Of a DNA stretch of 64,000 nt, positions 5,635 to 48,792 are shown piece by piece. Below the pieces are notes generated by a model that ran no database searches, was not told the DNA's origin, and was given only the letters and a program-made list of their open reading frames with translations. Source of the DNA: Myxococcota bacterium (GTDB lineage: Bacteria > Myxococcota_A > Polyangia > Polyangiales > Houyiibacteriaceae); contig JBCCHE010000018.1 in the NCBI GenBank assembly GCA_039028875.1, forward strand, positions 9,834-73,833, given 5' to 3'. Numbering within the stretch: position 1 is the stretch's first letter; every line of letters starts with the position of its first letter. The translations under genes were made by a program, and so were the position numbers.

Positions 5635-5744
5635 AAAACCACCGTTCCAACGACGCCACCGCCGACGCCACTCCGACCCCAAAAGCAGCGCCCTTGTCGG
5701 GCCGCAGCGCTTCGGCATGCTTAGGCCGCCGATGGGTGCGAAAT

Positions 5745-6334: not shown

Positions 6335-6475
6335 GCCGGTCCACGTCCATACCTGTAATCACACGACATTCCAAGGTTTTTGAGAGGCGCGGATCGCGAC
6401 CAGGGGGCGACTGCCCAAGACCGCACGAGGATTGCGGCTAGATCTCGTGGAGTTAGCGCCGTAGAGCATTGCCCC

Positions 6476-9804
<3,329 letters not shown>

Positions 9805-14238: not shown

Positions 14239-14279
14239 GCCGCGAGTCTAAACGTTACTCGGACACGCTGCGACAGCCC

Positions 14280-15074
14280 ATGTCGGTCATCGAAGCGTTC
14301 AACGAATCGGCCTCGGCCCACCCGCTCTACACGTGGACCATTGCCGGCGTCGTCATCCTTGGGGCCTTGGCGTTTCTGGTGCTCCTTTTTATTTCCGCAC
14401 CGTATGGACGGCACCTCCGCGACGGGTGGGGCCCAACCATGAACGCGACCGCGTTGTGGGTGCTCATGGAGGCGCCCTCCCCGATCTCCTTCGCGGTCGT
14501 TTACTTCATGTCCGACAACGCGTTCAAGCCCGTGCCGCTCGTGCTCTTCGCGATGTACATGGGCCACTACACCTATCGATCGTTCATCTACCCGTTTCGG
14601 ATGCGGGGGGGCCACAAGCGAAAGCCCATCTTGACGGGCGCTCTCGCGTTCGCGTTCAACATCGCAAATGGCTCCACCAACGCTTTCGCGATCACAGAAC
14701 TGGCACCGCACTTGCTCGACCCGCGGTGGTTCTCCGACCCGCGCTTCATCGCGGGGGCGATCATCTTCGCCACTGGCTACGCGATCAACCACCAGTCAGA
14801 CGCGATTTTGCGCAACCTGCGAAAGCCCGGAGAGAGCGGCTACAAGATTCCCCACGGGGGCTTCTACCGTTGGGTGTCGAGCCCCAACTACTTCGGTGAA
14901 CTGGTCGAATGGACCGGCTTCGCGCTGTGCGCCTGGACGGTCCCTGCAGTCGTCTTCGTCTTCTTCACGGCCTCGAACCTCGTGCCAAGGGCGTTTTCCA
15001 ATCACCGTTGGTACCTCGAGAACTTCGAGGACTACCCAAAAGACCGCCGTCGGGTCATCCCCTTCCTGCTGTAA
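14280..15074 (+). CDS. 3-oxo-5-alpha-steroid 4-dehydrogenase (steroid 5-alpha-reductase, SRD5A) family membrane protein
   Basis: ORF-track 14280..15074, 264 aa, polytopic. Family motifs YKIPHGGFYRWVSSPNYFGELVEW and NHRWY..FEDYPK.RR..IPF. Confidence 0.85.
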   Translation: MSVIEAFNESASAHPLYTWTIAGVVILGALAFLVLLFISAPYGRHLRDGWGPTMNATALWVLMEAPSPISFAVVYFMSDNAFKPVPLVLFAMYMGHYTYRSFIYPFRMRGGHKRKPILTGALAFAFNIANGSTNAFAITELAPHLLDPRWFSDPRFIAGAIIFATGYAINHQSDAILRNLRKPGESGYKIPHGGFYRWVSSPNYFGELVEWTGFALCAWTVPAVVFVFFTASNLVPRAFSNHRWYLENFEDYPKDRRRVIPFLL

Positions 15075-15101
15075 GGCCGGGGGCTTGCATCCTGAGGCCG
15101 A

Positions 15102-17612: not shown

Positions 17613-17646
17613 GCCCTGTCAGCCGGCCGTTACGCCGTCGTCGCGG

Positions 17647-18780
17647 TCACTCGGAGCTCGACAGTAGCGTAGAGACGCGTTCGACAGCATCGATGTACTC
17701 ACCGACCATCTCTTCGACGACCTGGCGAGCCGACTTGCGCGTGTTCATCTGACCAACGACCTGCCCCACCGGTGTACCGAGCAGCGACGCGGACCCTTCC
17801 GCACCGGTTTGTGCGAAACGCGTGATGCGCTGCGTGGCCTCGGCGGTGGCCATGAACTGAAGCGGCATCGGCAGGTACCCAGGACACTCTGGGTCTTCGT
17901 CCCAGGCCCGCGTGTAGTCGGTCTTGAGTTGCCGCGCGGGCTTACCACTGATGCAACGTGAGCGAACGGTCTCTGTGGAGTCGGCCACCAAGAGCTTGTC
18001 GACGAGGGACGGAATCGAGTCCGACTCTTCGGTCGTGAGCCAAATCGACCCCGTCCAAACGCCCTGCGCGCCCATGGCAAGCGCGGCCGCCATCTGACGA
18101 CCGGAACCAATCCCCCCGGCGCCCAACACCGGAGTAGGTGCCACCGCGTCCACGACTTGGGGCAGAAGCACCATCGAGCCGATCTCGCCCGTGTGCCCGC
18201 CGGCTTCGAAGCCCGAGGCGATGACGATGTCAACGCCAGCATTCTTTTGTTTGATCGCTTGCCGGACCGTCCCACAAAGCGCGGCCACCACGACGCCGCG
18301 GTCGTGCGCTTGGCTGATGATATCTTCTGGCGGCGGCCCAAGGGCGTTGGCGATGAGGGCAATCGGGTGATTCATCGCAACATCGAAATGCGCGCGACCT
18401 CCACTGGCCGACCAGCCGAGGAGGCTCTCGATCTGCTGGACGTCGTCCGGAAGCGGCGGTACCCCGTGCCGGCCGAGTAGATCGTTGATCCACTTCCGGT
18501 GGGCCGGCGTGATCATCTGCTCGAGCTGTTCCTTGGTGATGTCGCCTTGGTCGCGGCCGATGTACTTCGCAGGGATGACGGTGTCGACGCCGTAAGGCTT
18601 CCCGTCGACATGCTCGTCGATCCACTTGAGTTCGAGCTCGAGCTGCTCCGGACTGTAGGCGACGGCCCCGAGCACCCCGAGACCACCGGCCCGACTCACC
18701 GCCGCAACGACGTCCCGGCAGTGGCTAAACGCAAAGATCGGAAACTCGATCCCAAGCCGCTCACAAATCTCAGTCTTCAT
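17647..18780 (-). CDS. nitronate monooxygenase (NMO / 2-nitropropane dioxygenase family, FMN-dependent)
   Basis: ORF-track 17647..19071. Start moved to ATG 18780 (MKTEICERLGIEFPIFAFSH). Also GGLGVLGA, ASGFEAGGHTG and GAGGIGSGRQMAAALAMGAQGVWTGS. Confidence 0.85.
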   Translation of the reverse strand: MKTEICERLGIEFPIFAFSHCRDVVAAVSRAGGLGVLGAVAYSPEQLELELKWIDEHVDGKPYGVDTVIPAKYIGRDQGDITKEQLEQMITPAHRKWINDLLGRHGVPPLPDDVQQIESLLGWSASGGRAHFDVAMNHPIALIANALGPPPEDIISQAHDRGVVVAALCGTVRQAIKQKNAGVDIVIASGFEAGGHTGEIGSMVLLPQVVDAVAPTPVLGAGGIGSGRQMAAALAMGAQGVWTGSIWLTTEESDSIPSLVDKLLVADSTETVRSRCISGKPARQLKTDYTRAWDEDPECPGYLPMPLQFMATAEATQRITRFAQTGAEGSASLLGTPVGQVVGQMNTRKSARQVVEEMVGEYIDAVERVSTLLSSSE

Positions 18781-34241: not shown

Positions 34242-35786
34242 TTACAGATCGATCGCGCCGCTGACTTCGCCGAGCGAGTCGCCTGTGTACCCAGCGGCCT
34301 GCATCGCGCGCACCAGCACCCGCGCCGGATGCTGTCGGGCGCCATCGATGTGCGCGCCCGGGTTGAGCCCGCCGGCGCGCCCCGCGACAAGCAACACCAT
34401 GTTCTCGACCGAGTGGGTCTGATTCTGCGACGAGCCATCGTTGAGCTGGAGCCCGTGACCTGCCTCGGCGGTGAAGACCAACACCGTGTTGTCGAGCGCA
34501 TTGCCGCCCGCCTCCGGGGTGTTCCGAAGCTTGTCGATCAAGTAGGCGTAGTGGGAGATGTGCCAGCCGAGGAGCGCGGCCGACGGAATCTGACCGCGGT
34601 TGTTTGGGTCTCCGTTGTGACCCACTTCGTGAAGGTCGCCACCGACCGAGGCCCATTGCGCTGGCCGGGTCGTGCCCTCGAGTGTCCCGAGGCCGTCAGC
34701 GATCGGGCGTACGTTCATGTGGGACTGGAACGCGGTGATCTGGAGCGACGCTGCCCGCGAGAGATCGCAGACAAACGCCATGTGAATCAGATCGGCGAAC
34801 AGCCGTGACCGAGTATGCTCGTCGCTGTAGCCCGTTCCCGGCGCCACCGACCCGGTACCGCCGCCATCGTGGTCTCCGCCGATCGGCGGATCGGAGCCTG
34901 GGTCCGGCGGCACGAAGCAGGTGCCGGTGACGACGGGTGGCAACGCACTCAGCCGGTTTTCGAGGTCACGAATCTCGTCGAAGTGTCGTTCGAGTCGCGC
35001 TTCATCCGCACGGCCGACGCTATTCATCAACTTGGCGCGCTTTTCGAGGACCAAGTCGAGCACGCTACGGCGCGACCGAAGCGCAAAGTCGAACCGCGCA
35101 GCCTCGTCACCGTCCTCGGGAACGAAACCCTGGAAGAGCGAACGATAGGCCACCTCGGGGCTCGCCTGCGCCTCGATGCGAGCACCACTGCCGCCTCCGG
35201 CGCCGTAGGAAATGTACTGGCGACCGGCGAAGCCATAGCCACTCACGTAGAAGCCCGGCTGCGACCGAAAGACCAACGAGCGATGGGTGGTTTGCCCGGC
35301 GTTCAGGTCCGCGATGACTTGGTCGGAGGTGATCCCGTTGCAGGTGAAGCTCGGGGTGGTCGAGCGGGTCCCAGACAGCAGGGGACTCGCACCGCCGCCG
35401 TGAAAGTCACGGTAGGCACCCCCCGAAGGCACGGCGCTCCCGGCAGTCGAGCTCGCGTTGAAGGGAATGGCGAGGTTCGAGACCATCGTGAAATCGTCCT
35501 GCATGCCTTGAAGGGGCATCAGGGCTGTCGTGAGCGGATAGTCGCGACCGAGCGCCGTGTCGGCGATGTAGTGACCCCCTTCGGTGATGTTCTGGCCGCC
35601 CACGCGACTCGCGTTCTTGGCGTATCCGTCGCCGCCAAGCGCCTGCCCTGCGAACAGGATGGCGTAACGCGCAGGGGTCTGCTGCGCACGACCCTTCGCG
35701 GGCATCATGCACTCGAGCCACGGGAGAGCGACGGTCGCGCCGGCAAGGCCTCGGAGAACGGCTCGTCGGTGAATCTTGACGGCCAT
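34242..35786 (-). CDS. DUF1552 family protein with twin-arginine-like leader
   Basis: ORF-track 34242..35786. N-terminus MAVKIHRRAVLRGLAGATVALPWLECM is the family hallmark. The start shares base 35786 with the upstream stop (TGATG). Confidence 0.85.
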   Translation of the reverse strand: MAVKIHRRAVLRGLAGATVALPWLECMMPAKGRAQQTPARYAILFAGQALGGDGYAKNASRVGGQNITEGGHYIADTALGRDYPLTTALMPLQGMQDDFTMVSNLAIPFNASSTAGSAVPSGGAYRDFHGGGASPLLSGTRSTTPSFTCNGITSDQVIADLNAGQTTHRSLVFRSQPGFYVSGYGFAGRQYISYGAGGGSGARIEAQASPEVAYRSLFQGFVPEDGDEAARFDFALRSRRSVLDLVLEKRAKLMNSVGRADEARLERHFDEIRDLENRLSALPPVVTGTCFVPPDPGSDPPIGGDHDGGGTGSVAPGTGYSDEHTRSRLFADLIHMAFVCDLSRAASLQITAFQSHMNVRPIADGLGTLEGTTRPAQWASVGGDLHEVGHNGDPNNRGQIPSAALLGWHISHYAYLIDKLRNTPEAGGNALDNTVLVFTAEAGHGLQLNDGSSQNQTHSVENMVLLVAGRAGGLNPGAHIDGARQHPARVLVRAMQAAGYTGDSLGEVSGAIDL

Positions 35787-37426
35787 CAGAGTTCTTCCTC
35801 GACTTTGCGAACGAAACGGTCAGAGGCGACGAAGGACAGAACGAATTCTTGGAAATCGTGACCCCCACCGCGGAACTCCTCGGTGACCTCGTCGAGCAGC
35901 GCGTCCTCGTACTGGGTAGGCGCGCGACCCCATGCGTAGGTGAGGAACTGCTCCACGGCGCAGGCGTCCACGTAGCCGTTGTCGACCAGAAGCGAAGAAA
36001 GCTCGGCCGGGCTCGAGAAGCCTCCAACCCCGACGATCTCCCCGTCGCCCGAGATTGTGCACTCGGGAAGCCCGTCATCGAACTCGCGAAAGCGACCGGC
36101 GATGTCGTAGTTCTCTAGTCCGAACCCGATCGGATCGACCAAGCTGTGGCACCCGGCGCAACTGCCCGATTGGTCTCGGTGCTCCGCGTATCGGTCGTAT
36201 TTGCACACCGCATCAAGGACGCCCTCGGGGGGCTGGTCGACGTCCACGTCTGGCGGGGGTCGAGGCACGTCCTCACACATGAGACGCGTGCGAACCATGA
36301 TCCCGCGCTGTGTCGGACTCGTATCCTCGAACTTGCTGAACGCGGCCAACAGGGTGCCGTGCCCCAGGATCCCGGCGCGCCCGGTCCCCTCGTACGACAC
36401 CCAACCCTCGCCGCCCTCCGGCCGGGGAAGGCCGTAGTGATCGGCGAGTGCGTCGTCGACGAAGGTCTCGCCCATCGTGAAGAGCCGGAGGTAGTTCCCG
36501 GGCTCGTCGAGGATGACACGGTCGATCAGCGCCGACGTCTCTCGGTTGAATGCGGCGACCAGCTCCGGGGGATGCGGAATCGATCGATACCCGAGCCACA
36601 TCGCGTGAAACCGTTGTAGCTGCGTGCGCGCGCGGGGGTCCTGAAGCATGCGGGCGGCTTGGTCGCGCCGGCCCTGCACCGTGTCGAGCTCACCCGCCCC
36701 TGCTGCGGCGCGAAGGGTGTCGTCGGGCATGCTGGCCCACAACAAGTACGACATCCGACTGGCGATCTCGTACGAATCGAGCTCTACGAGACCGGGCTCG
36801 GCGCCCGGACGGCCGTCTTCGATCCGATACAAGAACTCGGGGTCTTGGACGGTCGCGGAGATGGCGAGTTCCACGGCGGTGAAGAAGTCGTTCTCGACCG
36901 CGGGGTTGTTCTCTGACGCGAATGCGAGGAGCGGCAGGTAGGCGTCAACGTCCTCGCTGGTGACCGCACGTCGAAGGGCGCGCGGGAGGAACTCGTCCAA
37001 GAACGCCCGGAAGCACGCTTCGTCGCCGGAGCCCGCCGGGCTGCACGGCACCAGCGCGGCACGACGCTCGGGGGTTGCGACAGCCCGCTCCGCGACTTCT
37101 TCGGCAAGCAGCTCGAGCGAGTCGACGAGGGCCTCGGACGCTTGCTGAATGGTGTAGTCGTTGTCGAAAGGACGGAATTCGTCCTCGTTGAGCAGGCGCG
37201 ATGCCGGCGCGGTATCCTCGCCCAGGAGATCGCGCAGCGTATTGTCGAGCTCGGCCTGGGAGAGCCGTCGGGCGCCACTCTGGACGGCGAGTAACGGATC
37301 GACCGCGGGCGGCCCATCGATTCCGCCTGGACCACCGGGCCCTCCTGGATCAGCCCCTTGGCCTATCTGACCCGTGCAGGCACCTAGCGCGAAGCAGGCG
37401 AGAACGACAAAAAGACGCCGATACAC
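35786..37426 (-). CDS. DUF1587/DUF1592/DUF1595/DUF1588/DUF1585-type multi-domain lipoprotein
   Basis: ORF-track 35786..37426. Lipobox LACFALGAC. Motifs RRLSQAELDNTLRDLLG, VQDPEFLYRIE and CAGCHSLVDPIGFGLENYDIAGRFRE. Confidence 0.85.
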   Translation of the reverse strand: MYRRLFVVLACFALGACTGQIGQGADPGGPGGPGGIDGPPAVDPLLAVQSGARRLSQAELDNTLRDLLGEDTAPASRLLNEDEFRPFDNDYTIQQASEALVDSLELLAEEVAERAVATPERRAALVPCSPAGSGDEACFRAFLDEFLPRALRRAVTSEDVDAYLPLLAFASENNPAVENDFFTAVELAISATVQDPEFLYRIEDGRPGAEPGLVELDSYEIASRMSYLLWASMPDDTLRAAAGAGELDTVQGRRDQAARMLQDPRARTQLQRFHAMWLGYRSIPHPPELVAAFNRETSALIDRVILDEPGNYLRLFTMGETFVDDALADHYGLPRPEGGEGWVSYEGTGRAGILGHGTLLAAFSKFEDTSPTQRGIMVRTRLMCEDVPRPPPDVDVDQPPEGVLDAVCKYDRYAEHRDQSGSCAGCHSLVDPIGFGLENYDIAGRFREFDDGLPECTISGDGEIVGVGGFSSPAELSSLLVDNGYVDACAVEQFLTYAWGRAPTQYEDALLDEVTEEFRGGGHDFQEFVLSFVASDRFVRKVEEEL

Positions 37427-37464
37427 ACGATCAAGATTCCAGACTTCAGAGTGAGAGTCTAGAA

Positions 37465-37470
37465 ATTATA
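37465..37470 (-). promoter_or_regulatory. perfect TATAAT hexamer in a 64-bp AT-rich island upstream of CDS 35786..37426
   Basis: Plus strand reads attata at 37465-37470, about 40 nt upstream of ATG 37426. No convincing -35 element at 16-18 nt spacing. Confidence 0.25.
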
Positions 37471-37490
37471 ACCCTAAAGTGTGAAATTCG

Positions 37491-37949
37491 TTAGTGGCCT
37501 TTCCAAATCCATAGGGCGCGCAGGTGCATCGCGGCGGGCGCGGGGTCGCCACGGAGCCACGCGATCGCGCCCTTCTTGAAGCGAACCCAGGTTCCCAGTG
37601 GATCCCCGGTGGTGAGCAGGGCCAGGGTGTCGCTCATCCAGGGCTCGTGACCGACACAAGCCACAGACCGACCTTCGAGGCTGGCGAAGAAGCTCGGCTC
37701 AGGCGCTTGGGCCAAGCCGGCCGTTTGCACGACGGGGCCGACCGTGACCGGATCGAGAAGGGCCGCGGTCTGCGCGGCGCGCACCCAGGGGCTCGTGTAC
37801 ACGCGATCGAACTGAATGTCGGCGCGCTGAAGGTCGGCCACCATTTGCGTAAACCGTTGCCGGCCGACGTCGGTGAGGGCGCGTTCATGGTCGGGCAAAC
37901 CGGCTCGACGCTCTTCTGCGATCGCATGGCGGATCAGGAACACATCCAT
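37491..37949 (-). CDS. sixA: phosphohistidine phosphatase SixA (histidine phosphatase superfamily)
   Basis: ORF-track 37491..37949. Catalytic motifs FLIRHAIAE and VGHEP. About 150 aa, typical of SixA. Confidence 0.8.
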   Translation of the reverse strand: MDVFLIRHAIAEERRAGLPDHERALTDVGRQRFTQMVADLQRADIQFDRVYTSPWVRAAQTAALLDPVTVGPVVQTAGLAQAPEPSFFASLEGRSVACVGHEPWMSDTLALLTTGDPLGTWVRFKKGAIAWLRGDPAPAAMHLRALWIWKGH

Positions 37950-37955
37950 GACAGC

Positions 37956-39449
37956 TCACTCTGCCCCGTGGGTTTCGAGTCTGAAGCCGACAGCCTTGAG
38001 GAGCTTCTGCTCACGTTCTAGGTCGGCGTCAACCAAGGGGTGAGAGGCGAGCCAGCTCGGCTCGAAGTCGAGCTCGAGCTTGTTGTCTTTCGCGGAAATC
38101 TTGGGAACAGGCACGTTTTCCGGGTCGCGGGTGCGGTTGAGCAAGACGGAGAGCCGAAGGAGCACCGTAAGGCGCTTGGCGGCGCGACGAAGCTCCCGCG
38201 GAAGCGTGTCGAAGAAGCTGTCGTCGAGCTTGCGGCGGTGCCCGCGGATCAACGTCGCCACGAGCTGCTGCTCGTCGCGCGAAAACCCGGGCAAGTCAGA
38301 CGACGCCACCAGATAGGCGCCGTGCTTGTGGTGCCCCGTGTAGTTCACCGCGAGACCGATTTCGTGAAGCTGCGCTCCCCAGGTGAGTGCGTGCACCATG
38401 TCGGGCGAGTCTTTTCCCCACTCGTCGGCCAACTGTTCGAGCAAGGCCAATGCCGTCGCTTGCACGCGGTCTGCGTGATCCTGGTCGATCGAGTAGCGGC
38501 TCGAGAGCATGGCGATCGTCCGGTCGCGGGGATCCTCGTCCTGGATCCGACCGATCATGTCGTAGATCAGGCCCTCGCGAAGTGCGGTGGGCGAGACCCA
38601 CATCTCGTCGATCGCCAGCCGGTCGAAGACCGCACTGAGAATGGCAACGCCGCCCGGAAAGACCGCTCGTCGGTCGGGATCGAGGCCGGGGAGCTCGAGG
38701 CGGTCCAAGCGTCCGGTGGTGATCATCGCTTGCTCGAGCTTCGTCAGGCCCTCTGCCGTGATCGTGCCGTGGGCCCAGCCCGCCTCTTCGAGGATTGCGG
38801 CGACCGCCCGTATCGTGCCGGACGCCCCGATGGCCCGTTCCCATCCGTACTGACGGAGCGTGGCGCGCACCGGTTGGAGTTCGAGGGAAGCCGCGAGCTT
38901 CGCGTGGTTGAAGCGCTTGCGGCTGACCTTCCCCTCCGAAAAGAACTGCGTGGTGAAACCGACGCAGCCCATGTAGAGCGAGTGAACCGCGACGGCTTCG
39001 AAACTGTCGCCAACGATGCACTCGGTACTGCCGCCGCCGATATCGACGACGAGGCGCCGAGCAGGCGCGCCGGCGATCCCGTGCGACACGCCAAGGTAGA
39101 TCAGCCTGGCCTCCTCACGGCCCGGGATGATCTCGATCTGGTGACCGAGCGCAGTACTCGCGTCATCTAAGAACTCCCGGGCGTTCTTGGCCTTTCGGAG
39201 GGTATTGGTGCCGACCGCACGAACTTGGTCGGCGCCGAAGTCTCGGAGTCGCTGACCGAAACGGGTAAGCGCTTCGTGGGCCCGTTGTTGAGACTCTTCA
39301 TCGAGGCCGCCATCGTCCTGGAGGCCGGCCGCGAGCCGGACCGGCTCTCGAAGGCGATCGACGATCTGTAGGCTGTCGTGGTCGAGCCGCGCGATCACCA
39401 TGTGGAAGCTGTTCGACCCCAGGTCGACTGCCGCGAGCGACTCCATCAA
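37956..39449 (-). CDS. ppx: exopolyphosphatase / guanosine pentaphosphate phosphohydrolase (Ppx/GppA family)
   Basis: ORF-track 37956..39449. Motifs AAVDLGSNSFHMVIARL and VDIGGGSTE. HD-like C-terminal half (LHEIGLAVNYTGHHKHGAY). Confidence 0.9.
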   Translation of the reverse strand: MMESLAAVDLGSNSFHMVIARLDHDSLQIVDRLREPVRLAAGLQDDGGLDEESQQRAHEALTRFGQRLRDFGADQVRAVGTNTLRKAKNAREFLDDASTALGHQIEIIPGREEARLIYLGVSHGIAGAPARRLVVDIGGGSTECIVGDSFEAVAVHSLYMGCVGFTTQFFSEGKVSRKRFNHAKLAASLELQPVRATLRQYGWERAIGASGTIRAVAAILEEAGWAHGTITAEGLTKLEQAMITTGRLDRLELPGLDPDRRAVFPGGVAILSAVFDRLAIDEMWVSPTALREGLIYDMIGRIQDEDPRDRTIAMLSSRYSIDQDHADRVQATALALLEQLADEWGKDSPDMVHALTWGAQLHEIGLAVNYTGHHKHGAYLVASSDLPGFSRDEQQLVATLIRGHRRKLDDSFFDTLPRELRRAAKRLTVLLRLSVLLNRTRDPENVPVPKISAKDNKLELDFEPSWLASHPLVDADLEREQKLLKAVGFRLETHGAE

Positions 39450-40392: not shown

Positions 40393-40719
40393 ATGAAATT
40401 ACAGAACTTTTTCCTGATCGCAGTCTTCGTCGTGTTCACCGGGTACTCCGCGACGGTGGTGATCGACCACGGCGTCACCGGGTTCGTTGACGTGGCGATG
40501 GCCGGCGGATGGGCGCTCCAGATCCTCATCGACCTTTGCATCGCGCTGACGGCGTTCATGGTCTGGATGTTCGGCGACGCCAAGGAACGCGGGATCGCCG
40601 CGTGGCCCTACGCGATCGGAATCGTCTGTACGGGATCGGTGGCCGCGCTCGCCTACTTGGTGCACCGCTCGTTTCGGGAACGGAGTGGCGCAACGGGCGC
40701 TCGACCCGCGCACGCCTAG
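40393..40719 (+). CDS. small integral membrane protein (108 aa)
   Basis: ORF-track 40393..40719. AAGGAGG lies 6 nt upstream of the ATG. Three to four hydrophobic helices. Confidence 0.65.
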   Translation: MKLQNFFLIAVFVVFTGYSATVVIDHGVTGFVDVAMAGGWALQILIDLCIALTAFMVWMFGDAKERGIAAWPYAIGIVCTGSVAALAYLVHRSFRERSGATGARPAHA

Positions 40720-40734: not shown

Positions 40735-43716
40735 CTAGCGCTCCATGTAGCCAATGGCTTCGAGGTGTGCGGCGACATCTTCGTCGAGGGCGACCGAGTC
40801 GGCGACCGCCGCGCCCTCCCCGGCTTGTGCCCGCTGCCGGACCAACGTCTTGGTCGCCGCCACGACGTCGCTGGCCTGGCTCTCGGCCAGGTTGCGGGTC
40901 TCGCCGGGATCCAGATCGACACGGTAGAGCTCCACGGGATCGAGCCCGCGCGGGTTCTTCGGGTTGGCGGTGATCAGTTTGAACTCGTCAGTCCCACGGA
41001 GCTCACGGACCGATTCGAGCACGTTCCCCTCGTGACTCTCTTCCGCGTAGATCACATCGGTACCGGTGAAGGCGTCGCCACCCTGGACCTCATCGGGCAC
41101 ATCGAGATCGAGAAGCCCGAGCACGGTCGGCATCAAATCGATGCTCTGCACCCAATGACGAACGGCCGTCCCGCCACGTCGCGCGCCCGGAAGTTTCACG
41201 AAAAGCGGAACGTGGACCTGCTCGTCGTAGAGGGTCGTGCCATGCCAAAAGCCTCCGTGGTCATCGAACTCTTCCCCGTGGTCGCTCGTCACCACGATGG
41301 TGAGGTCGTCGTAGAGACCGCGTTCCCGTAGCGCGTCGAGGAGTCTCCCGAACTGGGCGTCCCAGTAGGTGATCTCCCCGTCGTAGAGGGCACGTAGGGC
41401 GGGCGCTTCCGAGGGCTTGGGATGCTGGTGCGCCGCCCGGGCGTAGCCGCTGCCATCATACGGATGCACAAAGTAGGGATCATGCGGATCCATGTAGCCC
41501 ACAAACAGAAACCACGGGGCGGCGGAATCGGTACCGCGGTCGATCCAACCGAGCAGCGCCCGATTCACGGTTTCGGCATCTTGATACGCTGTGCCCGGCA
41601 AGACGTCGCCGCGGCCAGCACGGTACCGTTCGATGCGCTGCCGAATGAACTGCATGAGGAGTAGCTTGGCGCTTGCATCGTCGGCGCCGAGGACGAACTC
41701 CGGCTCGAGGAAGTAGTACTCGTCAAAGCCTTGTTGGAAGTTGAAGTACGGCGCGACGTTAAAGTTCGTCGCGTACCCGGCGGTCCGGTACCCGGCCGGC
41801 TGGAGGACCTCTGGCAGCGTGGTGACGGATCCCGGGAGCGCATCGCTCTTGGCCATCACACCGTGGCTCGAGGGCAATCGGCCGGTGAGGATCGATGCGA
41901 AGCTCGGGCGAGTCCAACTGGCATTGGTGAACGCTTGATCGAACCGGACGGAGTCCTCCGCGAACCGATCGAGGTTCGGTGTCGCACCGCCTTGATATCC
42001 GTACCCCGGCAAGTGATCGGCACGGAGGGTGTCGACGACGATGAAAAGGACGTTCGACTGTGCACCGGCATCGACGGCGCCGGCGGTCGCCGAGACTGAC
42101 CCTTCGGTGTCCGTCGCGAAGCGCATGTTCACCAGAAGGGCAACGCCCAGCACCCCCAGCACGCCGAATGCGACCGGCACCCGCATGAGCCTGCCGAGAG
42201 CCGGCCGTGAGACCAGCGCCCGCAGCACCCAAGCGAACGCGGCGCTCAGGAGTGCAACAACGACAGCGCAACCGACCAACACGCCGAGCCCGAGAACGCT
42301 CTTCCATACGAGCTCTTCATGGAAGACATCGCGACGGAGCCGAAACGCGGAGAGCGCAAACAAGAATATCCCAAACACCGTCGCCGCGAAGTAGGAGAAC
42401 GCGTCACCGTCAGGCAACGCGCGCCGCTTCATCAAACGTCCGCTCGTCGCCGAGGCGAGTCCGAGGCCGGCGCCCACAAGCGCGCAGAGCACACCGTAGG
42501 CCACGGGGCCATAGAGGAAGACGCGGGCACCCGTCGAACCGGCAGACGAGCTCGCGATCGCAATCGCCTCGGCGATCCCGACGCCCAAACCTGCAACCAC
42601 GCCCGCGCTCAACCCGAGCGCCATGCCGCGCAGGGGCCTGGGCCAAGCCTCGGGAGGTGCCTTCTCGATCGCGTCCGTTGCGAGCCGCTCGCGATCGGGA
42701 TCTTCGACTCGGATCTTCGGGTCGTAGCCTGACTTCCGGAGCAAGAAGATGGCGCCCCCGAATGCCGAAACGAACATCTCGCAGGCAAAGCCGAGCGTGG
42801 GAATGAGGACTGCGACGGCAAGCGGCAAACCGACTGCGGGTGACGTGTACAAGGCGACCGCAGCGGCCTCGCGAAGCCCGATGCCGTTGATCGACGCCGG
42901 GACCAGGGTGGCCAGGATCTGCAGGGAGGAGGCAAAGAACACTTCGCCGAGGCTCAGTTCGACGCCGAGGGCGCGGGCCGCGCACACGTAGATGAGGTTG
43001 TTGAACGCGTGCGTTCCGACCCCGAGCGCCGCCGCCTGGATCAGCAGCCCCGCTTTGCCCCGATACGCGGCCACCGCATCGATGAGGGTCTGGATGCGGG
43101 CACGAATCCCGGCTGGAACGAAGCGTGCGAAGAAAAGAAAGAGCTGGGGTTGGGCCAGAAACGCCAAGCCGACCACGATGATCCCGACAAAAACCCCGTT
43201 GACGAGGAGCACGCCTTCGGTGCCGATGAAGCGCATGCCGAAGAGGCTCCCGAGCATCACGACAACCCCGAACGCGAGCTGGCCGAGAATCATCTCCACG
43301 CCGATGGTCGCGGTGGCGCGGGCGGTCTTCCCGGTGTGCTTTGCCACGTCGTAGATCCGCCAACCTCCAAAGCCCGTAAAACCACCGGGCGTGAAGGCGC
43401 CCCAGAAGCGCGCGATCATGATCGACCCGCCAAGGAAACGCCACGACGCGAAGATTCCCTGCCCGACCAACAGGCGCTGCCAACGGACGGTGCTGAACCC
43501 AATCGCGATCAGCTGCATCAAGACGGCGGCCGCAACCCAGCCCCATTCGAGATCCGCAAGACGGGCGACGAGATCGTCGGCGCCATCGCGGCGTATGACC
43601 TTGCGGAAAATGAACGCCAGCATGCCGACCGAAAAGATCAGCTTGGCTGCGAACAAGAGCAGTTTCTTTGGGTTCTCGCGCACGGTTCCCCTCGTCGGCT
43701 GCCGTAACCGTTGCAC
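40735..43716 (-). CDS. fusion: flippase-like (lysyl-PG-synthase TM-region type) domain, additional TM block, and sulfatase-fold phosphotransferase-like domain
   Basis: ORF-track 40735..43716 (GTG start; an alternative GTG is at 43683). N-terminal half is polytopic. C-terminal motifs NVLFIVVDTLRADH, SWTRPSFASILTG (Thr at the nucleophile position) and VVTSDHGEEFDDHGGFWHG. Confidence 0.8.
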   Translation of the reverse strand: MQRLRQPTRGTVRENPKKLLLFAAKLIFSVGMLAFIFRKVIRRDGADDLVARLADLEWGWVAAAVLMQLIAIGFSTVRWQRLLVGQGIFASWRFLGGSIMIARFWGAFTPGGFTGFGGWRIYDVAKHTGKTARATATIGVEMILGQLAFGVVVMLGSLFGMRFIGTEGVLLVNGVFVGIIVVGLAFLAQPQLFLFFARFVPAGIRARIQTLIDAVAAYRGKAGLLIQAAALGVGTHAFNNLIYVCAARALGVELSLGEVFFASSLQILATLVPASINGIGLREAAAVALYTSPAVGLPLAVAVLIPTLGFACEMFVSAFGGAIFLLRKSGYDPKIRVEDPDRERLATDAIEKAPPEAWPRPLRGMALGLSAGVVAGLGVGIAEAIAIASSSAGSTGARVFLYGPVAYGVLCALVGAGLGLASATSGRLMKRRALPDGDAFSYFAATVFGIFLFALSAFRLRRDVFHEELVWKSVLGLGVLVGCAVVVALLSAAFAWVLRALVSRPALGRLMRVPVAFGVLGVLGVALLVNMRFATDTEGSVSATAGAVDAGAQSNVLFIVVDTLRADHLPGYGYQGGATPNLDRFAEDSVRFDQAFTNASWTRPSFASILTGRLPSSHGVMAKSDALPGSVTTLPEVLQPAGYRTAGYATNFNVAPYFNFQQGFDEYYFLEPEFVLGADDASAKLLLMQFIRQRIERYRAGRGDVLPGTAYQDAETVNRALLGWIDRGTDSAAPWFLFVGYMDPHDPYFVHPYDGSGYARAAHQHPKPSEAPALRALYDGEITYWDAQFGRLLDALRERGLYDDLTIVVTSDHGEEFDDHGGFWHGTTLYDEQVHVPLFVKLPGARRGGTAVRHWVQSIDLMPTVLGLLDLDVPDEVQGGDAFTGTDVIYAEESHEGNVLESVRELRGTDEFKLITANPKNPRGLDPVELYRVDLDPGETRNLAESQASDVVAATKTLVRQRAQAGEGAAVADSVALDEDVAAHLEAIGYMER

Positions 43717-43798
43717 GCAAAAGGGTCAAATTGGCGGCTCGGAGCGGCCGCGCCGGCACTTAGTTGCGCGGACGGACGGTGGTTGGTAGCGACGCAGC

Positions 43799-45184
43799 AT
43801 GCGCAACCATGCGGCGATTCGATGGACGCTCTGCGCGTCCTTTTTTCTCCTGTCCTGCGAACGAAACCAGGCGGCGCCGGAACCCACAGCCGAGGGAGCC
43901 CCGGCGCAACCGTCGGGCGACGCGGAAGCTACCGCCGAGGACGGCGCGCCCCGGGACAAGGACGTGGCTCCGGAACCATCGCCGCTGGGTGTCCCCGACT
44001 CGTTGCCGAAAAGCCTGTTGCTCGCGTTCTCGCAGTTTGAAGTTGTCGATGGGCAGGCGACGGCCAAGCCCGGTCCGGCGCGACTCGAGATTCTGACGCG
44101 AGAGGATGGAGCGTGGAAGACGCAAGTGATCGAGGATCCACAGAGCAACGTCTTTCACAAGGCCATGCCGCTGAAGCCCCGGGGGCAACCGCCTGGTATT
44201 CTGACGCTCGGCGGATCAGGCGCCCACGTGAAACTGTGGCGACCGGTTAAGGGAGAGCCCAAAGCGACGACGCTCTGGAGTGCGGAGTTCGGCGGCAAGT
44301 TCAACCGGATGCGCGACGCCGAGGTCGCGGATGTGTACGGAGACGGGACGGAGGAGCTCGTCGTGGCGACGCACGATCAAGGGGTCGTCGCCGTGATGCG
44401 ACAACGCCCCAAGAACAAGTGGAAAGTTGAGCGCATCGATCAGAAGAAGGACACCTTCGTTCACGAGATTGAGATTGGCGACCTCTCCGGCGATGGGGTG
44501 CTCGAGGTGTACGCGACCCCGAGCGACCCCAACAAGCTCGACGCGGAGGCCCAGCACGGCGAAGTCGTTCGGTACGTCCCGAAGACTGGCGAAGGACCGA
44601 CGGTCGTCGCCGACCTAGGGAACCGACACGCCAAGGAGATCTACGTCGGCGATGTCGACGGGGACGGACGCGACGAGCTCTACGTGGCCGTCGAGGCACT
44701 GACGAGGGGGCGTGGCGCCAGTCTCGAGATCGTGGAGCCAGTGGAGATTCGGAGATACGACGCGGACACTGCGCCGGACGCGGGTGCAGTCATCGCGACG
44801 ATCCCGGATCGCCTGTCGCGGTTCCTGACCGTGGGCGACGTCGACGGCGATGGGAAGAAGGCGATGGTGGTTGCGTCGTTCAGTACCGGGCTCTGGTTGT
44901 TGCGGCCGGGCAAGGACCCAAAGGGCGAGTGGGGCATCGAGAACATCGACCGGGATTCTGGGGGGTTCGAACACGCGGCCCTATTCGCAGACCTCGACGG
45001 TGACGGCATCGACGAGCTGTATGTCGCGGCTGACACCCAGGGGGAGCTGCGACGATACGTATGGGTCAACGGCAGGGCCAAGCGGGAGGTGATCCAGAAG
45101 CGAGACATCCCGATGTCGCGCATGACCTGGAACATCACCGAAGCCCCGAAGGACCCGTTTGCCGCGGTGCCTGAGACGAAATAG
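43799..45184 (+). CDS. FG-GAP/VCBS-repeat lipoprotein
   Basis: ORF-track 43799..45184. Lipobox FFLLSC. Five DxDxDG-type repeats (DVYGDGTEELVV, GDLSGDGVLEVY, GDVDGDGRDELYV, GDVDGDGKKAMVV, ADLDGDGIDELYV). Confidence 0.75.
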   Translation: MRNHAAIRWTLCASFFLLSCERNQAAPEPTAEGAPAQPSGDAEATAEDGAPRDKDVAPEPSPLGVPDSLPKSLLLAFSQFEVVDGQATAKPGPARLEILTREDGAWKTQVIEDPQSNVFHKAMPLKPRGQPPGILTLGGSGAHVKLWRPVKGEPKATTLWSAEFGGKFNRMRDAEVADVYGDGTEELVVATHDQGVVAVMRQRPKNKWKVERIDQKKDTFVHEIEIGDLSGDGVLEVYATPSDPNKLDAEAQHGEVVRYVPKTGEGPTVVADLGNRHAKEIYVGDVDGDGRDELYVAVEALTRGRGASLEIVEPVEIRRYDADTAPDAGAVIATIPDRLSRFLTVGDVDGDGKKAMVVASFSTGLWLLRPGKDPKGEWGIENIDRDSGGFEHAALFADLDGDGIDELYVAADTQGELRRYVWVNGRAKREVIQKRDIPMSRMTWNITEAPKDPFAAVPETK

Positions 45185-45202: not shown

Positions 45203-45739
45203 CTAGCGCTCGACGAGACGCGGGATGAGCTCTGCGAAGTTACAGGGTCGGTATCGGATGTCGAGTTGGTAGCGTAGGATCCCGTCCCATGCGTCTTGAC
45301 AGGCGCCCGGTGAACCTGGAAGCGCAAACAGATAGGTTCCCCGGGCGACGCCGGCCACGGCACGCGACTGGATCGTGGACGTACCGATCTTGTCGTAACT
45401 GAGCATTCGAAATAGCTCCCCGAAGCCCGGGATCGACTTCTCCCATATGGCTTCGAACGCTTCGGGGGTGACGTCTCGGGCGGTCACACCGGTCCCGCCC
45501 GTCGCGAGGACGACCTCGACATTGGGTTCGTTGACCCACCGCCGAAGTTGCACCTCGATGCGCTTTCGGTCGTCTGGCACGATGACCTTGTCCATCACGT
45601 GGTGGCCCGCGGTTTGGGCGAGCTCGACGAGGAGCGCTCCCGATTTGTCGGTCTCTTCGGTGCGCGTGTCAGACACCGTCATCACCGCGAGTCGCAGTCC
45701 CTTGAAGGGGATTGATTCGTCAAAGTGCGGGCCTGGCAT
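45203..45739 (-). CDS. moaB: molybdenum cofactor biosynthesis protein B (MoaB/MogA family)
   Basis: ORF-track 45203..45958. Start moved to ATG 45739 (MPGPHFDESIPFKGLRLAVMTVSDTR). Motifs ATGGTGVTARDVTPEA and LPGSPGA. Confidence 0.85.
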   Translation of the reverse strand: MPGPHFDESIPFKGLRLAVMTVSDTRTEETDKSGALLVELAQTAGHHVMDKVIVPDDRKRIEVQLRRWVNEPNVEVVLATGGTGVTARDVTPEAFEAIWEKSIPGFGELFRMLSYDKIGTSTIQSRAVAGVARGTYLFALPGSPGACQDAWDGILRYQLDIRYRPCNFAELIPRLVER

Positions 45740-45741
45740 GG

Positions 45742-46161
45742 TCAGTCCTCCACCTCGTGACTGAGTGCAGTCGCGAGTTTCTCGGCCTCTTCCGGATCGA
45801 GTTTGCCAGCTGGCCACTTGATGCCGAGCCCGTGGTCCTCGCTCGGGCGCGGAATGATGTGGAAGTGGACGTGAAAGACCGCCTGGTGGGCCAGCGGCCC
45901 GTTGTTCTGCAGAACGTTGTACTGCTCGATCCCGGTGACCTTCTTGATCGCGCGACACAACCTCGGGAGCACACGACCGATGGCGGCCGCGGAGTCGTCG
46001 GACAACTGGTCGAGGGTCGCGACCTCCTCTTTCGGGATCACGAGGGTGTGACCGTAGCTCAGGGGGCCGATGTCGAGGAAGGCGAGGACGTGCGCATCCT
46101 CGTAGACCTTATGACAGGGGATGTCCCCACGGAGAATCTTGCTGAAGATCGTGTCGGCCAT
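45742..46161 (-). CDS. HIT-family (histidine triad) nucleotide hydrolase
   Basis: ORF-track 45742..46161. N-terminus IFSKILRGDIPCHKVYED. Histidine triad HVHFHIIP. Confidence 0.9.
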   Translation of the reverse strand: MADTIFSKILRGDIPCHKVYEDAHVLAFLDIGPLSYGHTLVIPKEEVATLDQLSDDSAAAIGRVLPRLCRAIKKVTGIEQYNVLQNNGPLAHQAVFHVHFHIIPRPSEDHGLGIKWPAGKLDPEEAEKLATALSHEVED

Positions 46162-46257
46162 CGCCCGGAGCTTATACGCTCGCCCAGGGGCAGACTAGAC
46201 CCGGTCGAGGCGGTTCCCACCTTTACCGATGGGTTCATCAGCACTAGGGTCGTCGCC

Positions 46258-47193
46258 ATGAAAAGTCTTCCCTTGACGCAGCTCATCGGCCTTCTGGCCG
46301 TATCTCTTGCCTTTGGATGCGGCGATGGTTCGTCGGGCACGGACGGGACCGGGGGCACCGATGTTGTGTTCTCCGCCGACCCGCCCCTCGTCCTCGACGC
46401 CGGAGAGAGGCCGGCAGAGGTCGCCATCCCGGGCGACTACGACCCGGAGGTCACCTACCCGTTGCTGGTGATCCTCCACGGCGCGGGCGTCACTGGGTCA
46501 ATCCAGGCGGGTTTCTTCCGACTGTTCGACGCGGTCGATGAGCAACAGTTCGTGCTGGTGTATCCGGACGGGATCAACAACGTATGGAACGCGACCGATG
46601 CGTGCTGTGATCCGACCAGGTCTGTCGACGACGTCGACTACATCAGCGGGCTCATCGAGGAGGCCCTCCAGACCTACAACACCGACCCCGACCGTGTGTA
46701 CCTGATGGGGCACTCGAACGGCGGGTTCATGTCATTTCGGATGGCATGTGAGCGGTCGGACCTGGTGACGGGTATCGTCACCCTGGCGGCCTCCGTCTTC
46801 CAGATGCCCGAGGACTGCCAGCCGTCCGAACTCCCGGTCAGCGCGCTGATGGTGCACGGGACCGACGATCCAACGATCCTCTTCGAGGGAGGAAGCACAG
46901 GACTTGGCCCGTACCCGAGTGCGGATGAGACCGTCGCCCGGCTCGCCACGAGAGCGGGGTGCGATCTCGGCGACACGACCGCGCTCGACAACATCGACTT
47001 GTCGGGGGACTGGGATGGCGCCGAAACCGAGCGCGTCGTCTACAACAGCTGCGACGAAGGGCTGCAGATCGAACGTTGGACCTTGCGGCAGGAAATCGGG
47101 TGCTCCTCGTTCACCTGCAACCCGCACATCCCGGTGTTCACGGCGGATTGGGCGGAGCGGACGACGGACTGGCTGTTCGCGCTTAGTCGCTGA
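46258..47193 (+). CDS. PHB-depolymerase/LpqC-like esterase lipoprotein
   Basis: ORF-track 45712..47193. Start moved to ATG 46258 (MKSLPLTQLIGLLAVSLAFGC, lipobox). Nucleophile elbow GHSNGG. The upstream part of the ORF is antisense to the HIT/moaB genes. Confidence 0.75.
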   Translation: MKSLPLTQLIGLLAVSLAFGCGDGSSGTDGTGGTDVVFSADPPLVLDAGERPAEVAIPGDYDPEVTYPLLVILHGAGVTGSIQAGFFRLFDAVDEQQFVLVYPDGINNVWNATDACCDPTRSVDDVDYISGLIEEALQTYNTDPDRVYLMGHSNGGFMSFRMACERSDLVTGIVTLAASVFQMPEDCQPSELPVSALMVHGTDDPTILFEGGSTGLGPYPSADETVARLATRAGCDLGDTTALDNIDLSGDWDGAETERVVYNSCDEGLQIERWTLRQEIGCSSFTCNPHIPVFTADWAERTTDWLFALSR

Positions 47194-47195
47194 GC

Positions 47196-47281
47196 GGGTT
47201 TTCGCGGTGCGGCGTGCAAGTATCTGAACTTGCTTGTGATTTGGGGGGGCGGAGTGACCCCGGGGTTAGAGGGTGCGGAGG
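47196..47281 (+). repeat. repeat family copy C (66-nt core 47196..47261, extended to about 47281)
   Basis: GGGTTTTCGCGGTGCGG (47196-47212) ... TGGGGGGGCGGAGTGACCCC (47242-47261), then GGGGTTAGAGGGTGCGGAGGT. Fills the gap between two convergent stop codons (47191-93 and 47266-68). Confidence 0.8.
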
Positions 47282-48720
47282 TGGGCGATTAGGGACTGTT
47301 TTTCTTCGTTGGTGAGGTTGTCGCAGGTGTAGGGGTGGCCTTGGTCGCTGAAGGGGGAGGCCGTGATTGTTGGGCGGTTGGTGCCTAGGCAGAAGAGCGC
47401 CTCGAGGGTGTCGATCGAACCGTTGTGGAGGAGGCGCTTGGCCGACCAGACGCCGACGAGGCGCTGGGCCCGAATGCCGCCAGTCAGTGAGTCGCGACCG
47501 GTCAGGTCGATGTCGCAGCAAGGCCGGCCGTCGAGATCCGGGTCGAGCCAGCGTTGCATTGCAGCGTCGGTTCCGATTTCGTCGAACCCGTAGACCACTC
47601 GGCTCGACCCTCGCGCGCCGTCGTGACAGTCCGCGCACCCGGCGCTCACGAACAACTCGGCGCCACGGTCGGCCAAGTCGGCTGGAGGTGGGCTCAGATT
47701 GTCTGGCGCCCGAAGCGACAACAAGAAGTCTTCGAGCGGGCCGAGACGTTCGTCGGTCCACGCCTCGGTGTCGCCTCCTCCAAGAACGACGAAGCCCTGA
47801 AGGAAGTTCAACACACTGGTCGAGACGCCCGTATGGCCGAGCAATGCGCCGTCCATCCCGAAGGCGTCGACCTCGTCGTCACTCGCGATGCCCCAAAGTG
47901 ACATGATCTTGCTGACGGTGTGGACCCCATCGTCGATCGGTAGGGGAACGATCACGAAGTCCATCGTCCCCGGCTTCCACGCGGCGTACTGCGATTGTAG
48001 CTCCGGTGTGAAATCGGGCAGACCCACCCCCGACCCGGCGAGCGGCGCGAGCGCGGCCAGCATTCGCGTCTCGATGGTCGGGTCCGCCTCCATCTCGGCG
48101 AGGTAAGGCGCGAGTACCGCGGCGGCGCTCGGCTCCGGTTCGGTCCCAAGCAGCGCACTGAGCGGCAAGACCGCGCTCGCCAGGTCCATCTCGCCATACT
48201 CGTAGTCGTGGTTGGGGGCGCCGACTGCGTAGCGGCCGTCCGAAAGCTGGCCGAAGTGACAGCTCGCGCAGGTGAACGCCAACGCCGGGACGCCCTCGGC
48301 GGATTCGCGTCCCGGTCCGAAACCAAGCGGCAGCCCCGTTTCCGAGGTCGGGTCGGGAATCATGCCAACCCCCGATGCCCCGGGGCCCAATTGATTTGGG
48401 AACAGGTCGAGCATGGTGGTGAGCAAGACAGTGGGGACGCCGACCGTGTCGAAGCCCTCGTAGAAGAACATCTCTTTGCCACAAAGAAGGCGCTGCCTAC
48501 GCGTCGCGTCTCCGACAGACACATCGGACCAGTAGGCGTCGCAAGAGCCGGCGAGCGCGCCGCCCTCGAGTACCGCCATGAGGTCCGACGACAGGTTGGT
48601 GAGCCCTTCGCTCGTGTCCGCCTGCGGTGCGAACGGGCCACTGGAAAAGGAGGTGCCACCGCTGCACGCTGAAACGAGCAGCGCGGCGCTCACCAACGTA
48701 GCGAACAGCACCATCCTCAT
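47266..48720 (-). CDS. di-haem cytochrome-c-peroxidase-like lipoprotein (two CxxCH)
   Basis: ORF-track 47266..48780. Start moved to ATG 48720 (MRMVLFATLVSAALLVSAC, lipobox). Haem motifs CASCH and CADCH. Confidence 0.75.
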   Translation of the reverse strand: MRMVLFATLVSAALLVSACSGGTSFSSGPFAPQADTSEGLTNLSSDLMAVLEGGALAGSCDAYWSDVSVGDATRRQRLLCGKEMFFYEGFDTVGVPTVLLTTMLDLFPNQLGPGASGVGMIPDPTSETGLPLGFGPGRESAEGVPALAFTCASCHFGQLSDGRYAVGAPNHDYEYGEMDLASAVLPLSALLGTEPEPSAAAVLAPYLAEMEADPTIETRMLAALAPLAGSGVGLPDFTPELQSQYAAWKPGTMDFVIVPLPIDDGVHTVSKIMSLWGIASDDEVDAFGMDGALLGHTGVSTSVLNFLQGFVVLGGGDTEAWTDERLGPLEDFLLSLRAPDNLSPPPADLADRGAELFVSAGCADCHDGARGSSRVVYGFDEIGTDAAMQRWLDPDLDGRPCCDIDLTGRDSLTGGIRAQRLVGVWSAKRLLHNGSIDTLEALFCLGTNRPTITASPFSDQGHPYTCDNLTNEEKQSLIAHLRTL

Positions 48721-48792
48721 CCGAACCTCACGGGCGACCCGGCGAGCCGATGTGTACCATGCGCGCGCTCCGAATCCCAACCGCAGTAGCGC

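Follow-up and report, generated by a model that had tools for sequence, protein, structure and literature searches.

The window analyzed here, a 64,000-nucleotide stretch of contig JBCCHE010000018.1 from a Myxococcota bacterium, carries on its minus strand (positions 40735–43716) one uninterrupted open reading frame (ORF) of 993 codons, which runs from a GTG at 43716 to a TAG stop codon at 40735–40737. The encoded membrane protein joins an MprF-flippase-like module to a sulfatase-fold catalytic domain, and the gene lies divergently to a gene for a predicted FG-GAP lipoprotein on the plus strand (43799–45184). A preliminary description of this locus, made from the DNA letters, had presented the ORF as a single-polypeptide fusion of a flippase-like N-terminal region, a further block of about five transmembrane helices and an LtaS/EptA-like transferase, with a spacer of 82 bp to its divergent neighbor. 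The ORF and its neighbor lie where they had been placed, with two small corrections to the start codon and the spacer given below. Pfam assigned PF03706 (LPG_synthase_TM; MprF flippase/PplT/UPF0104) to aa 23–316 (89.8 bits, gathering cutoff 33.4) and, within the same polypeptide, PF00884 (Sulfatase) to aa 554–870 (E = 5e-47), together with the sulfatase C-terminal subdomain PF16347. PF01663 (type I phosphodiesterase/NPP) also scored above its cutoff (53.7 bits vs 23).

A Shine-Dalgarno-like GAGGGGA lies 5–11 nt before a second GTG, at 43683 (region 43675–43716), and a database protein that is 100% identical to the ORF product is annotated at 982 aa. Because this motif precedes the GTG at 43683 and the database annotation begins there, the true start is probably this codon (aa 12), which would yield a protein of 982 aa; the 993-aa reading then over-extends the N-terminus by 11 codons. 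Residue numbers throughout refer to the 993-aa ORF. The intergenic spacer (43717–43798, no strand) measures 82 bp, or 115 bp if translation starts at 43683, and gave no match to a sigma-70-type promoter. The region 42001–44000 displays an AT-skew spike of +0.27, which is explained by transmembrane-rich coding on the minus strand (T at codon position 2: 0.39 in the transmembrane half vs 0.26 in the catalytic half).

The fusion is a genuine single gene, neither a frameshift nor an artefact, and it is widespread. Searching 5.8 billion proteins gave 332 matches; the best 120 of these 332 were all about 960–1095 aa long, contained PF03706 and PF00884, came from metagenome-assembled genomes (MAGs) of Myxococcota/Polyangiales/Sandaracinaceae, and were named 'sulfatase-like hydrolase/transferase' or 'arylsulfatase A-like enzyme/YbhN (UPF0104)'. 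When one genome per GTDB species was scanned, a relative was encoded in at least 183 genomes, and the best 80 were nearly all full length, a few being truncated at contig ends. An exhaustive HMMER search with aa 1–553 gave 2284 proteins at E ≤ 1e-3, among them about 30 representatives of 965–1100 aa that aligned over query residues ~16–530 at 27–36% identity. PF03706 was present in all 33 distant long relatives and both Pfam domains in 31 of them. The few named distant members are called 'flippase-like domain-containing protein [Deltaproteobacteria bacterium]'. An assembly error or frameshift joining two genes, which had been named as a possible refutation of the fusion, is itself refuted by the continuous ORF, the at least 183 independent species-level genomes, hundreds of metagenomic contigs with full-length homologues carrying both Pfam domains, and the 31 of 33 distant relatives; its probability is practically nil.

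About ten divergent subfamilies (24–40% identity) retain both the architecture and an active-site signature ([VI]D[TA]LRxD, SWT[KR]PS, NxN, YMDPHDP[YF], DHGEEFxxHxGWWHG and VPLxxKxP). By this conservation, the architecture defines an old, coherent and uncharacterised family. Two further observations were made in these searches. A fusion gene 80% identical to ours, with full Polyangiales synteny, occurs on CAXMND010000014.1 in a MAG labeled 'uncultured Coxiellaceae bacterium', which is probably mis-binned. In addition, a 707-aa relative of the transmembrane half combines PF03706 with a GT4 glycosyltransferase, another partner of this translocase module.

The N-terminal module (aa 16–326; 42739–43671, minus strand) was recognized as MprF Subdomain-1-like/PplT (PF03706) by Pfam, profile–profile alignment, structural comparison and helix pattern. 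For the profile–profile alignment, an MprF alignment was gathered with S. aureus MprF as bait, which matches a database cluster of 6098 sequences at 100% identity and scores 835.6 bits on the NCBIfam MprF equivalog NF033480. Against this alignment of genuine MprF proteins, hhalign placed the family profile of the transmembrane region at a probability of 91.2% (E = 9.8e-7; query 17–305 vs S. aureus MprF 6–274). The same alignment pairs the family motif PASINGIGLRE (aa 273–283; 42868–42900, minus strand), a G-x-G re-entrant hairpin motif with invariant P273, G278, G280, R282 and E283, with the MprF hairpin PGGFGAFDL. HMMER did not link the membrane half to any solved structure. An AlphaFold2 (AF2) model of aa 1–553, built from 48 diverse sequences, was confident (predicted local distance difference test score, pLDDT, 88.5; predicted template-modeling score, pTM, 0.81), and its sole significant Foldseek matches in the PDB were six cryo-EM structures of MprF (7DUW, 6LVF, 7F47, 9J8S, 9GOE and 9J8Q; probability 1.00, E = 1.6e-5 to 2.4e-2), all non-MprF matches having a probability below 0.15. 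The order of helices in the model, that is TM1, a short periplasmic helix, TM2, a hairpin at 92–128 (3a/3b), TM4, TM5, a cytoplasmic insert, TM6, a second hairpin at 256–290 (7a/7b) and TM8, agrees with the published description of RtMprF Subdomain 1. In all subfamilies, many polar and charged positions of the PF03706 helices are invariant (R78, W79, Q86, R103, H236, G278, G280, R282 and E283).

Some hallmarks of MprF were not found. The YRxxY motif was not identified in the fusion family, and its Arg is unaligned as the hhalign alignment ends at residue 305. The aminoacyl-phosphatidylglycerol synthase domain PF09924 had no Pfam match in the fusion protein, and NF033480 was not among the NCBIfam matches. 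Taken together, three independent lines (Pfam, hhalign and AF2/Foldseek) identify aa ~16–326 as MprF-flippase-like at the level of sequence and modeled fold, in agreement with the flippase-like N-terminus of the preliminary description. Experiments have shown the membrane domain of MprF to flip lipids and, in P. aeruginosa, to act as an energy-independent promiscuous scramblase (PMC8131360, PMC11980842). PF03706 proteins, moreover, recurrently have lipid-modifying enzymes as fusion partners or gene neighbors (bioRxiv 10.1101/2022.03.11.483950, PMC12713373).

The module is followed by a charged loop (aa 327–360; 42637–42738, minus strand), predicted to be cytoplasmic from hydropathy, the model and charge counts, and by five further transmembrane helices (aa 361–537; 42106–42636, minus strand) at residues 361–390, 398–428, 436–464, 474–502 and 513–537, which both hydropathy and the AF2 model delineate and which match the number expected earlier. 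In the model, the five-helix block is predicted to pack onto the PF03706 module as one confident unit. It had no Pfam match and no detectable homologue (E = 2 for EptA_B_N), and hhalign did not match it to MprF Subdomain 2. The third helix of the block, TM11, carries at its predicted periplasmic end the charged motif FRLRRDVFHEE (aa 458–468; 42313–42345, minus strand; FRxRRDVFHEE in the family), of which F458, R462 and D463 are invariant in all subfamilies. As it is invariant, charged and opposed to the positive-inside trend, the motif is probably functional, as a candidate site for lipid-phosphate binding or domain docking. A low-confidence, poorly conserved linker (aa 538–553; 42058–42105, minus strand; pLDDT < 50) connects the block to the catalytic domain.

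Published work on RtMprF places both the start and the end of Subdomain 1 in the cytoplasm. Since an odd number of helices, five, follows the cytoplasmic loop, the C-terminal domain is predicted to be extracytoplasmic. The charge distribution points the same way: across 48 family members, the predicted cytoplasmic loops contain on average 18.9 Lys and Arg per protein vs 5.6 in the predicted periplasmic loops. Helix count and family-wide charge bias, which together provide the topology prediction envisaged in the preliminary description, thus predict an inner-membrane protein with its catalytic domain on the periplasmic face.

The catalytic domain (aa 554–993; 40738–42057, minus strand) comprises PF00884 and an SGSH_C C-terminal subdomain, and is predicted to be a periplasmic domain of sulfatase/phosphonate monoester hydrolase (PMH) fold. 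Its closest solved relatives by sequence are PMHs and choline, aryl and carbohydrate sulfatases (E = 2e-29 to 1e-19), LtaP following at just 3.5e-8. Foldseek of the full-length model (pLDDT 74.6) likewise led to S1 sulfatases and PMHs (E ~1e-16, target TM-score 0.6–0.7). Although sulfatases were also the best partial matches in NCBIfam, all sulfatase equivalogs reached only 66–137 bits vs cutoffs of 433–900, so that the curated thresholds were missed by choline sulfatase (137 vs 433), arylsulfatase (131 vs 481) and PehA (116 vs 900 bits). The scores of the EptA, LtaS, OpgB and YejM models were lower still, with 17–38 bits vs cutoffs of 500–970; LtaS gave 29 bits vs 970, the phosphoethanolamine-transferase domain 28.8 vs 500 and EptA 26.5 vs 561, and OpgB barely aligned.

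The active site, by comparison, departs from that of the sulfatases. The motifs quoted in the preliminary description (VVDTLRAD, SWTRPSF and SDHGEEF..HG) are present at aa 560–567, 600–606 and 811–826, respectively. VVDTLRAD (aa 560–567; 42016–42039, minus strand) supplies the first metal ligand, D562. SWTRPSF (aa 600–606; 41899–41919, minus strand) has Thr602 at the position of the nucleophile: in the alignment to the PMH 4UPK, T602-R-P-S-F606 falls on C-G-P-S-R, Thr602 on the Cys that is converted to formylglycine, and Phe on the Arg that is recognized by the formylglycine-generating enzyme (FGE). Because C-x-P-x-R reads T-R-P-S-F, formylglycine formation is impossible and the FGE-recognition Arg is lost, which bears out the earlier proposal that Thr replaces the formylglycine-forming Cys/Ser. 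YMDPHDPY (aa 741–748; 41473–41496, minus strand) is a family-invariant His/Asp motif that includes H745. Finally, DHGEEFDDHGGFWHG (aa 812–826; 41239–41283, minus strand) contains the metal ligands D812 and H813 as well as H825. When the hidden Markov model (HMM) of the family's catalytic domain was aligned to E. coli EptA, D562 paired with the metal-ligand Glu, T602 with the Thr nucleophile, and sDHGeEf..WHG with SDHGESLGENGIYLHG, in which D812-H813 correspond to the Asp-His ligands and H825 to the downstream His. The Lys of sulfatases lies at or beside the position of H825 (or G826). D562, T602, D812-H813 and H825 are each kept at at least 90% across the roughly ten subfamilies, Thr602 being conserved in all of them.

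These comparisons qualify the earlier assignment as an LtaS/EptA-like transferase: the active-site residues do align with those of EptA, but the domain is not a homologue of these enzymes (17–29 bits vs 500–970) and has the sulfatase/PMH fold. By sequence and model, its scaffold is that of the arylsulfatase/PMH (S1) clade, including SGSH_C, and not that of the LtaS/EptA clade; its likeness to EptA is confined to the active-site residues. Among relatives without the fusion, those nearest to the catalytic domain carry TPR, HEAT or MopE modules instead, and they too have Thr or Ser at the position of Thr602, which points to the Cys-to-Thr/Ser switch marking a wider, uncharacterised branch of the arylsulfatase-like clade.

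We also inspected the genomic neighborhood. The divergent gene at 43799–45184 (plus strand) encodes a predicted FG-GAP/VCBS-repeat lipoprotein of 461 aa with FG-GAP_3/FG-GAP Pfam matches, the lipobox FLLSC and five DxxGDG repeats, in line with its earlier identification as a five-repeat FG-GAP lipoprotein. In close relatives (at least 75% identity) the whole neighborhood is syntenic, with HIT, MoCF and FG-GAP genes on one side of the fusion gene and, on the other, a small DUF2834-like membrane ORF followed by genes for an MmyB-type regulator, Ppx/GppA, a His-phosphatase and a PSD-domain protein. Among loci whose upstream flank spans at least 1.8 kb, an FG-GAP orthologue was found upstream in 28 of 28 at an identity of at least 75%, adjacent to the fusion gene in all of them, in 10 of 36 at 50–70% (in 5 of these 10 directly adjacent to the fusion gene) and in none of 4 below 50%. 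Where both genes occur they are always divergent and never co-transcribed, and the FG-GAP gene persists longer with divergence than the other neighbors. The functional link that had been suggested between the two genes is therefore weakly supported: the adjacency in close loci hints at some association within one lineage, but the lipoprotein is clearly dispensable for the family. The distant subfamilies had unrelated neighbors in every locus examined, without a conserved operon partner, and the fusion gene behaves as a stand-alone unit. This lack of a partner is consistent with a self-contained function.

Several side observations concern the same surroundings. A small membrane ORF of 108 aa (40393–40719, plus strand) with sub-threshold similarity to DUF2834/DUF1475 converges on the fusion gene, with 15 bp between its end and the stop codon of the latter; the small ORF is kept at this position in most close relatives and is absent from distant ones. 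One relative of 68% identity has two small 23S_rRNA_IVP-family genes between the FG-GAP and fusion genes (locus positions 7211–7749). Within 35786–39449 and 45203–48780, the window encodes a PSD1-5 (DUF1585-1595) multidomain protein, a His-phosphatase, Ppx/GppA, an MmyB-like HTH regulator, MoCF-biosynthesis and HIT proteins, an alpha/beta hydrolase lipoprotein and a protein with weak RoxA-like/cytochrome c matches, none of which has an obvious functional connection with the fusion gene. In one distant locus the fusion gene lies near Wza/Wzc/CpsB-like polysaccharide export genes (2731–7818) and in another near GT2/epimerase genes (13914–18668); such neighbors do not recur across loci, yet they are compatible with a polymer acceptor.

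The domain identities, the conserved active-site residues, the predicted topology and the conserved architecture are the observations from which a function can be proposed. We slightly favor a self-contained, bifunctional flip-and-modify enzyme of the inner membrane, in which the periplasmic Thr602/metal site would transfer a lipid headgroup to an acceptor. In this proposal the first ~326 residues would act as an MprF-type (PplT) lipid translocase or scramblase, and the five extra helices would make up the rest of the membrane body and set the C-terminal domain on the periplasmic side. This domain would be a metal-dependent enzyme of the alkaline-phosphatase superfamily, built on an arylsulfatase/PMH scaffold with formylglycine swapped for Thr602. 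By analogy to EptA/MCR-1, LtaS, OpgB and BcsG, Thr602 would attack the phosphodiester of a membrane lipid headgroup, yielding a covalent phospho-Thr intermediate, and the headgroup (e.g. phosphoethanolamine or phosphoglycerol) would then be handed to an envelope acceptor. The translocase may bring the substrate lipid into the outer leaflet next to the active site, return the lipid product, or both. The order of events would be the reverse of that in MprF, where cytoplasmic modification precedes flipping. What we infer here by analogy is that lipids are translocated, that the chemistry is that of a transferase, and what the donor and the acceptor would be.

Several results weigh against this proposal. 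The catalytic domain is far closer by sequence to hydrolases (sulfatases and PMHs) than to any transferase, and no homology of the five-helix block to either the EptA/LtaS anchors or MprF Subdomain 2 was detected. The global TM-score of the modeled transmembrane half against MprF is just 0.34–0.38 in Foldseek, and the pTM of the full-length model is 0.48, so that the spatial relation of translocase and active site is not fixed by the model. In addition, the outer leaflet already contains phospholipid donors, which makes the need for a dedicated translocase not obvious, and no acceptor-synthesis genes are conserved near the fusion gene in the loci examined. A more specific version of the proposal can be put forward only tentatively, as possible rather than probable: a reverse-MprF machine in which a lipid made in the cytoplasm is flipped and passed directly, inside a single polypeptide, to a periplasmic Thr-phosphotransferase that evolved from a sulfatase/PMH via Cys-to-Thr and Lys-to-His exchanges. 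The five extra helices would correspond to an MprF Subdomain 2 that shed one helix and thereby shifted the catalytic domain across the membrane, and the machine would make an undescribed modified lipid or polymer in Polyangiales.

Among the alternatives, the one closest to the favored flip-and-modify transferase retains the architecture and topology but takes the periplasmic domain as a hydrolase, i.e. a lipid phosphodiesterase or phosphatase (phospholipase C/D-like, compare the Thr-nucleophile NPP enzymes) that would trim or remove the headgroups of lipids presented by the translocase, for membrane remodeling or lipid turnover. That the nearest relatives in sequence and structure are all hydrolases, that PF01663 (NPP) scores above its cutoff, and that the loci examined lack conserved acceptor-related genes all agree with such an activity, for whose pairing with an MprF-type flippase the LpiA/AcvB pair is a precedent. 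The arrangement of DHGE..HG and Thr, however, is that of the EptA-type transferases. Because the transferases of this superfamily also hydrolyze in vitro, sequence cannot tell the two activities apart; we consider a hydrolase the somewhat unlikely option. If, on the other hand, the enzyme were a true sulfatase with a sulfated lipid or polysaccharide of the membrane surface as its substrate, the top Pfam, NCBIfam, PDB and Foldseek matches, all to sulfatases, and the JGI family annotation 'arylsulfatase A-like enzyme' would be readily accounted for. With C/S-x-P-x-R absent, a Thr that is not convertible to formylglycine, Phe in place of the FGE-recognition Arg, His/Gly in place of the sulfate-binding Lys after DHG, and every NCBIfam sulfatase equivalog far under its cutoff, this is very improbable.

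A further reading concerns the membrane half, which could be a mere membrane anchor or a lipid-sensing scaffold, comparable to PbgA/YejM, in a regulatory or lipid-binding protein. The weak NCBIfam likeness to LapC/YejM/PbgA (E = 6.5e-10) and the MprF YRxxY Arg, which is not alignable beyond residue 305, would fit this reading, as would the fact that, for PF03706 proteins that stand alone, translocase activity is mostly a prediction (bioRxiv 10.1101/2022.03.11.483950, PMC12713373). We nevertheless judge it unlikely, as the many invariant polar and charged intramembrane residues exceed the needs of a passive anchor, and the catalytic residues are fully conserved, unlike those of a degenerate sensor.

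Targeted full-text literature searches found no description of a fusion between PF03706 and a sulfatase-fold domain, and no characterised example emerged, as the preliminary description had assumed. The parts and the general logic are already known; the combination, the inverted topology and the chimera of sulfatase scaffold and EptA-type site are undescribed. Little is understood of the phospholipid flippases of bacteria, and translocation has, to our knowledge, been demonstrated for no PF03706 protein other than MprF. A widely conserved natural fusion with its catalytic domain at the exit of the translocase would be an independent, genetic line of evidence for outward movement of lipids by PF03706 modules so that they can be modified, and would offer a tractable flip-then-modify system next to the modify-then-flip system of MprF. 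The acquisition of an EptA-type Thr/His active site by an arylsulfatase/PMH scaffold represents convergence within the alkaline-phosphatase superfamily, and bears on the origin of envelope-modifying and polymyxin-resistance-type enzymes. The proposal also predicts an undescribed envelope modification in the Polyangiales, an abundant and mostly uncultured group of soils and sediments.

How does the fusion protein relate to known systems? With MprF (7DUW, 6LVF, 7F47, 9GOE, 9J8Q) it shares N-terminal ~310 residues that are homologous to flippase Subdomain 1, including the two re-entrant hairpins, further transmembrane helices at the same sequence position as Subdomain 2 (361–537 in the fusion, 334–530 in RtMprF), and the presumed pairing of a lipid translocase with a lipid-modifying enzyme in a single polypeptide. 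Unlike MprF, it has no aminoacyl-phosphatidylglycerol synthase (PF09924), and five instead of six helices follow the translocase module, which puts the catalytic domain in the predicted periplasmic rather than a cytoplasmic position and would reverse the order of steps to flipping, then modification. Other PplT/UPF0104 (PF03706) proteins such as YbhN, GpgF and AglD-like proteins similarly have a translocase-like domain fused to or beside a lipid- or glycan-modifying enzyme, but while GT-A, GT-B, kinase and HAD domains are among the partners in those fusions, here it is a sulfatase-fold domain, predicted to be periplasmic, that is attached via five extra helices. A preprint on PplT lists 148 PF03706 architectures, with glycosyltransferase, kinase, HAD, O-antigen-ligase, methyltransferase and 'phosphotransferase (cl37506)' as partners; its text nowhere mentions a sulfatase, and cl37506 could not be resolved to a domain (bioRxiv 10.1101/2022.03.11.483950).

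The catalytic half invites comparison with two further groups. All known membrane-anchored headgroup transferases of the alkaline-phosphatase superfamily have 4–5 transmembrane helices followed by a periplasmic domain (bioRxiv 10.64898/2026.09.23.753746). The fusion protein resembles EptA/MCR-1, LtaS, OpgB and BcsG in its succession of five transmembrane helices, a linker and an alpha/beta metalloenzyme domain on the predicted periplasmic side, and E. coli EptA in the aligned Thr nucleophile, Asp/Glu...Asp-His metal ligands and downstream His (DHGE..HG). It differs from EptA, LtaS, OpgB and BcsG in that sequence similarity is marginal, its anchor is unrelated (no EptA_B_N match) and its C-terminal subdomain is of the arylsulfatase type; unlike all of them, it also has a complete MprF-type translocase module in front. 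S1 sulfatases and PMHs (4UPK, 4UPH, 2VQR, 8DI0) are the best matches in sequence and fold and resemble the fusion protein in their two subdomains and in the Asp and Asp-His that bind the metal, but they are soluble, whereas the fusion protein is membrane-attached and has Phe and His/Gly in place of their sulfate/phosphonate-binding Arg and Lys. Neither a formylglycine sulfatase nor a member of the MprF or EptA/LtaS families, the fusion protein is, by these sequence comparisons, hybrid-like between MprF and the EptA/LtaS-type enzymes.

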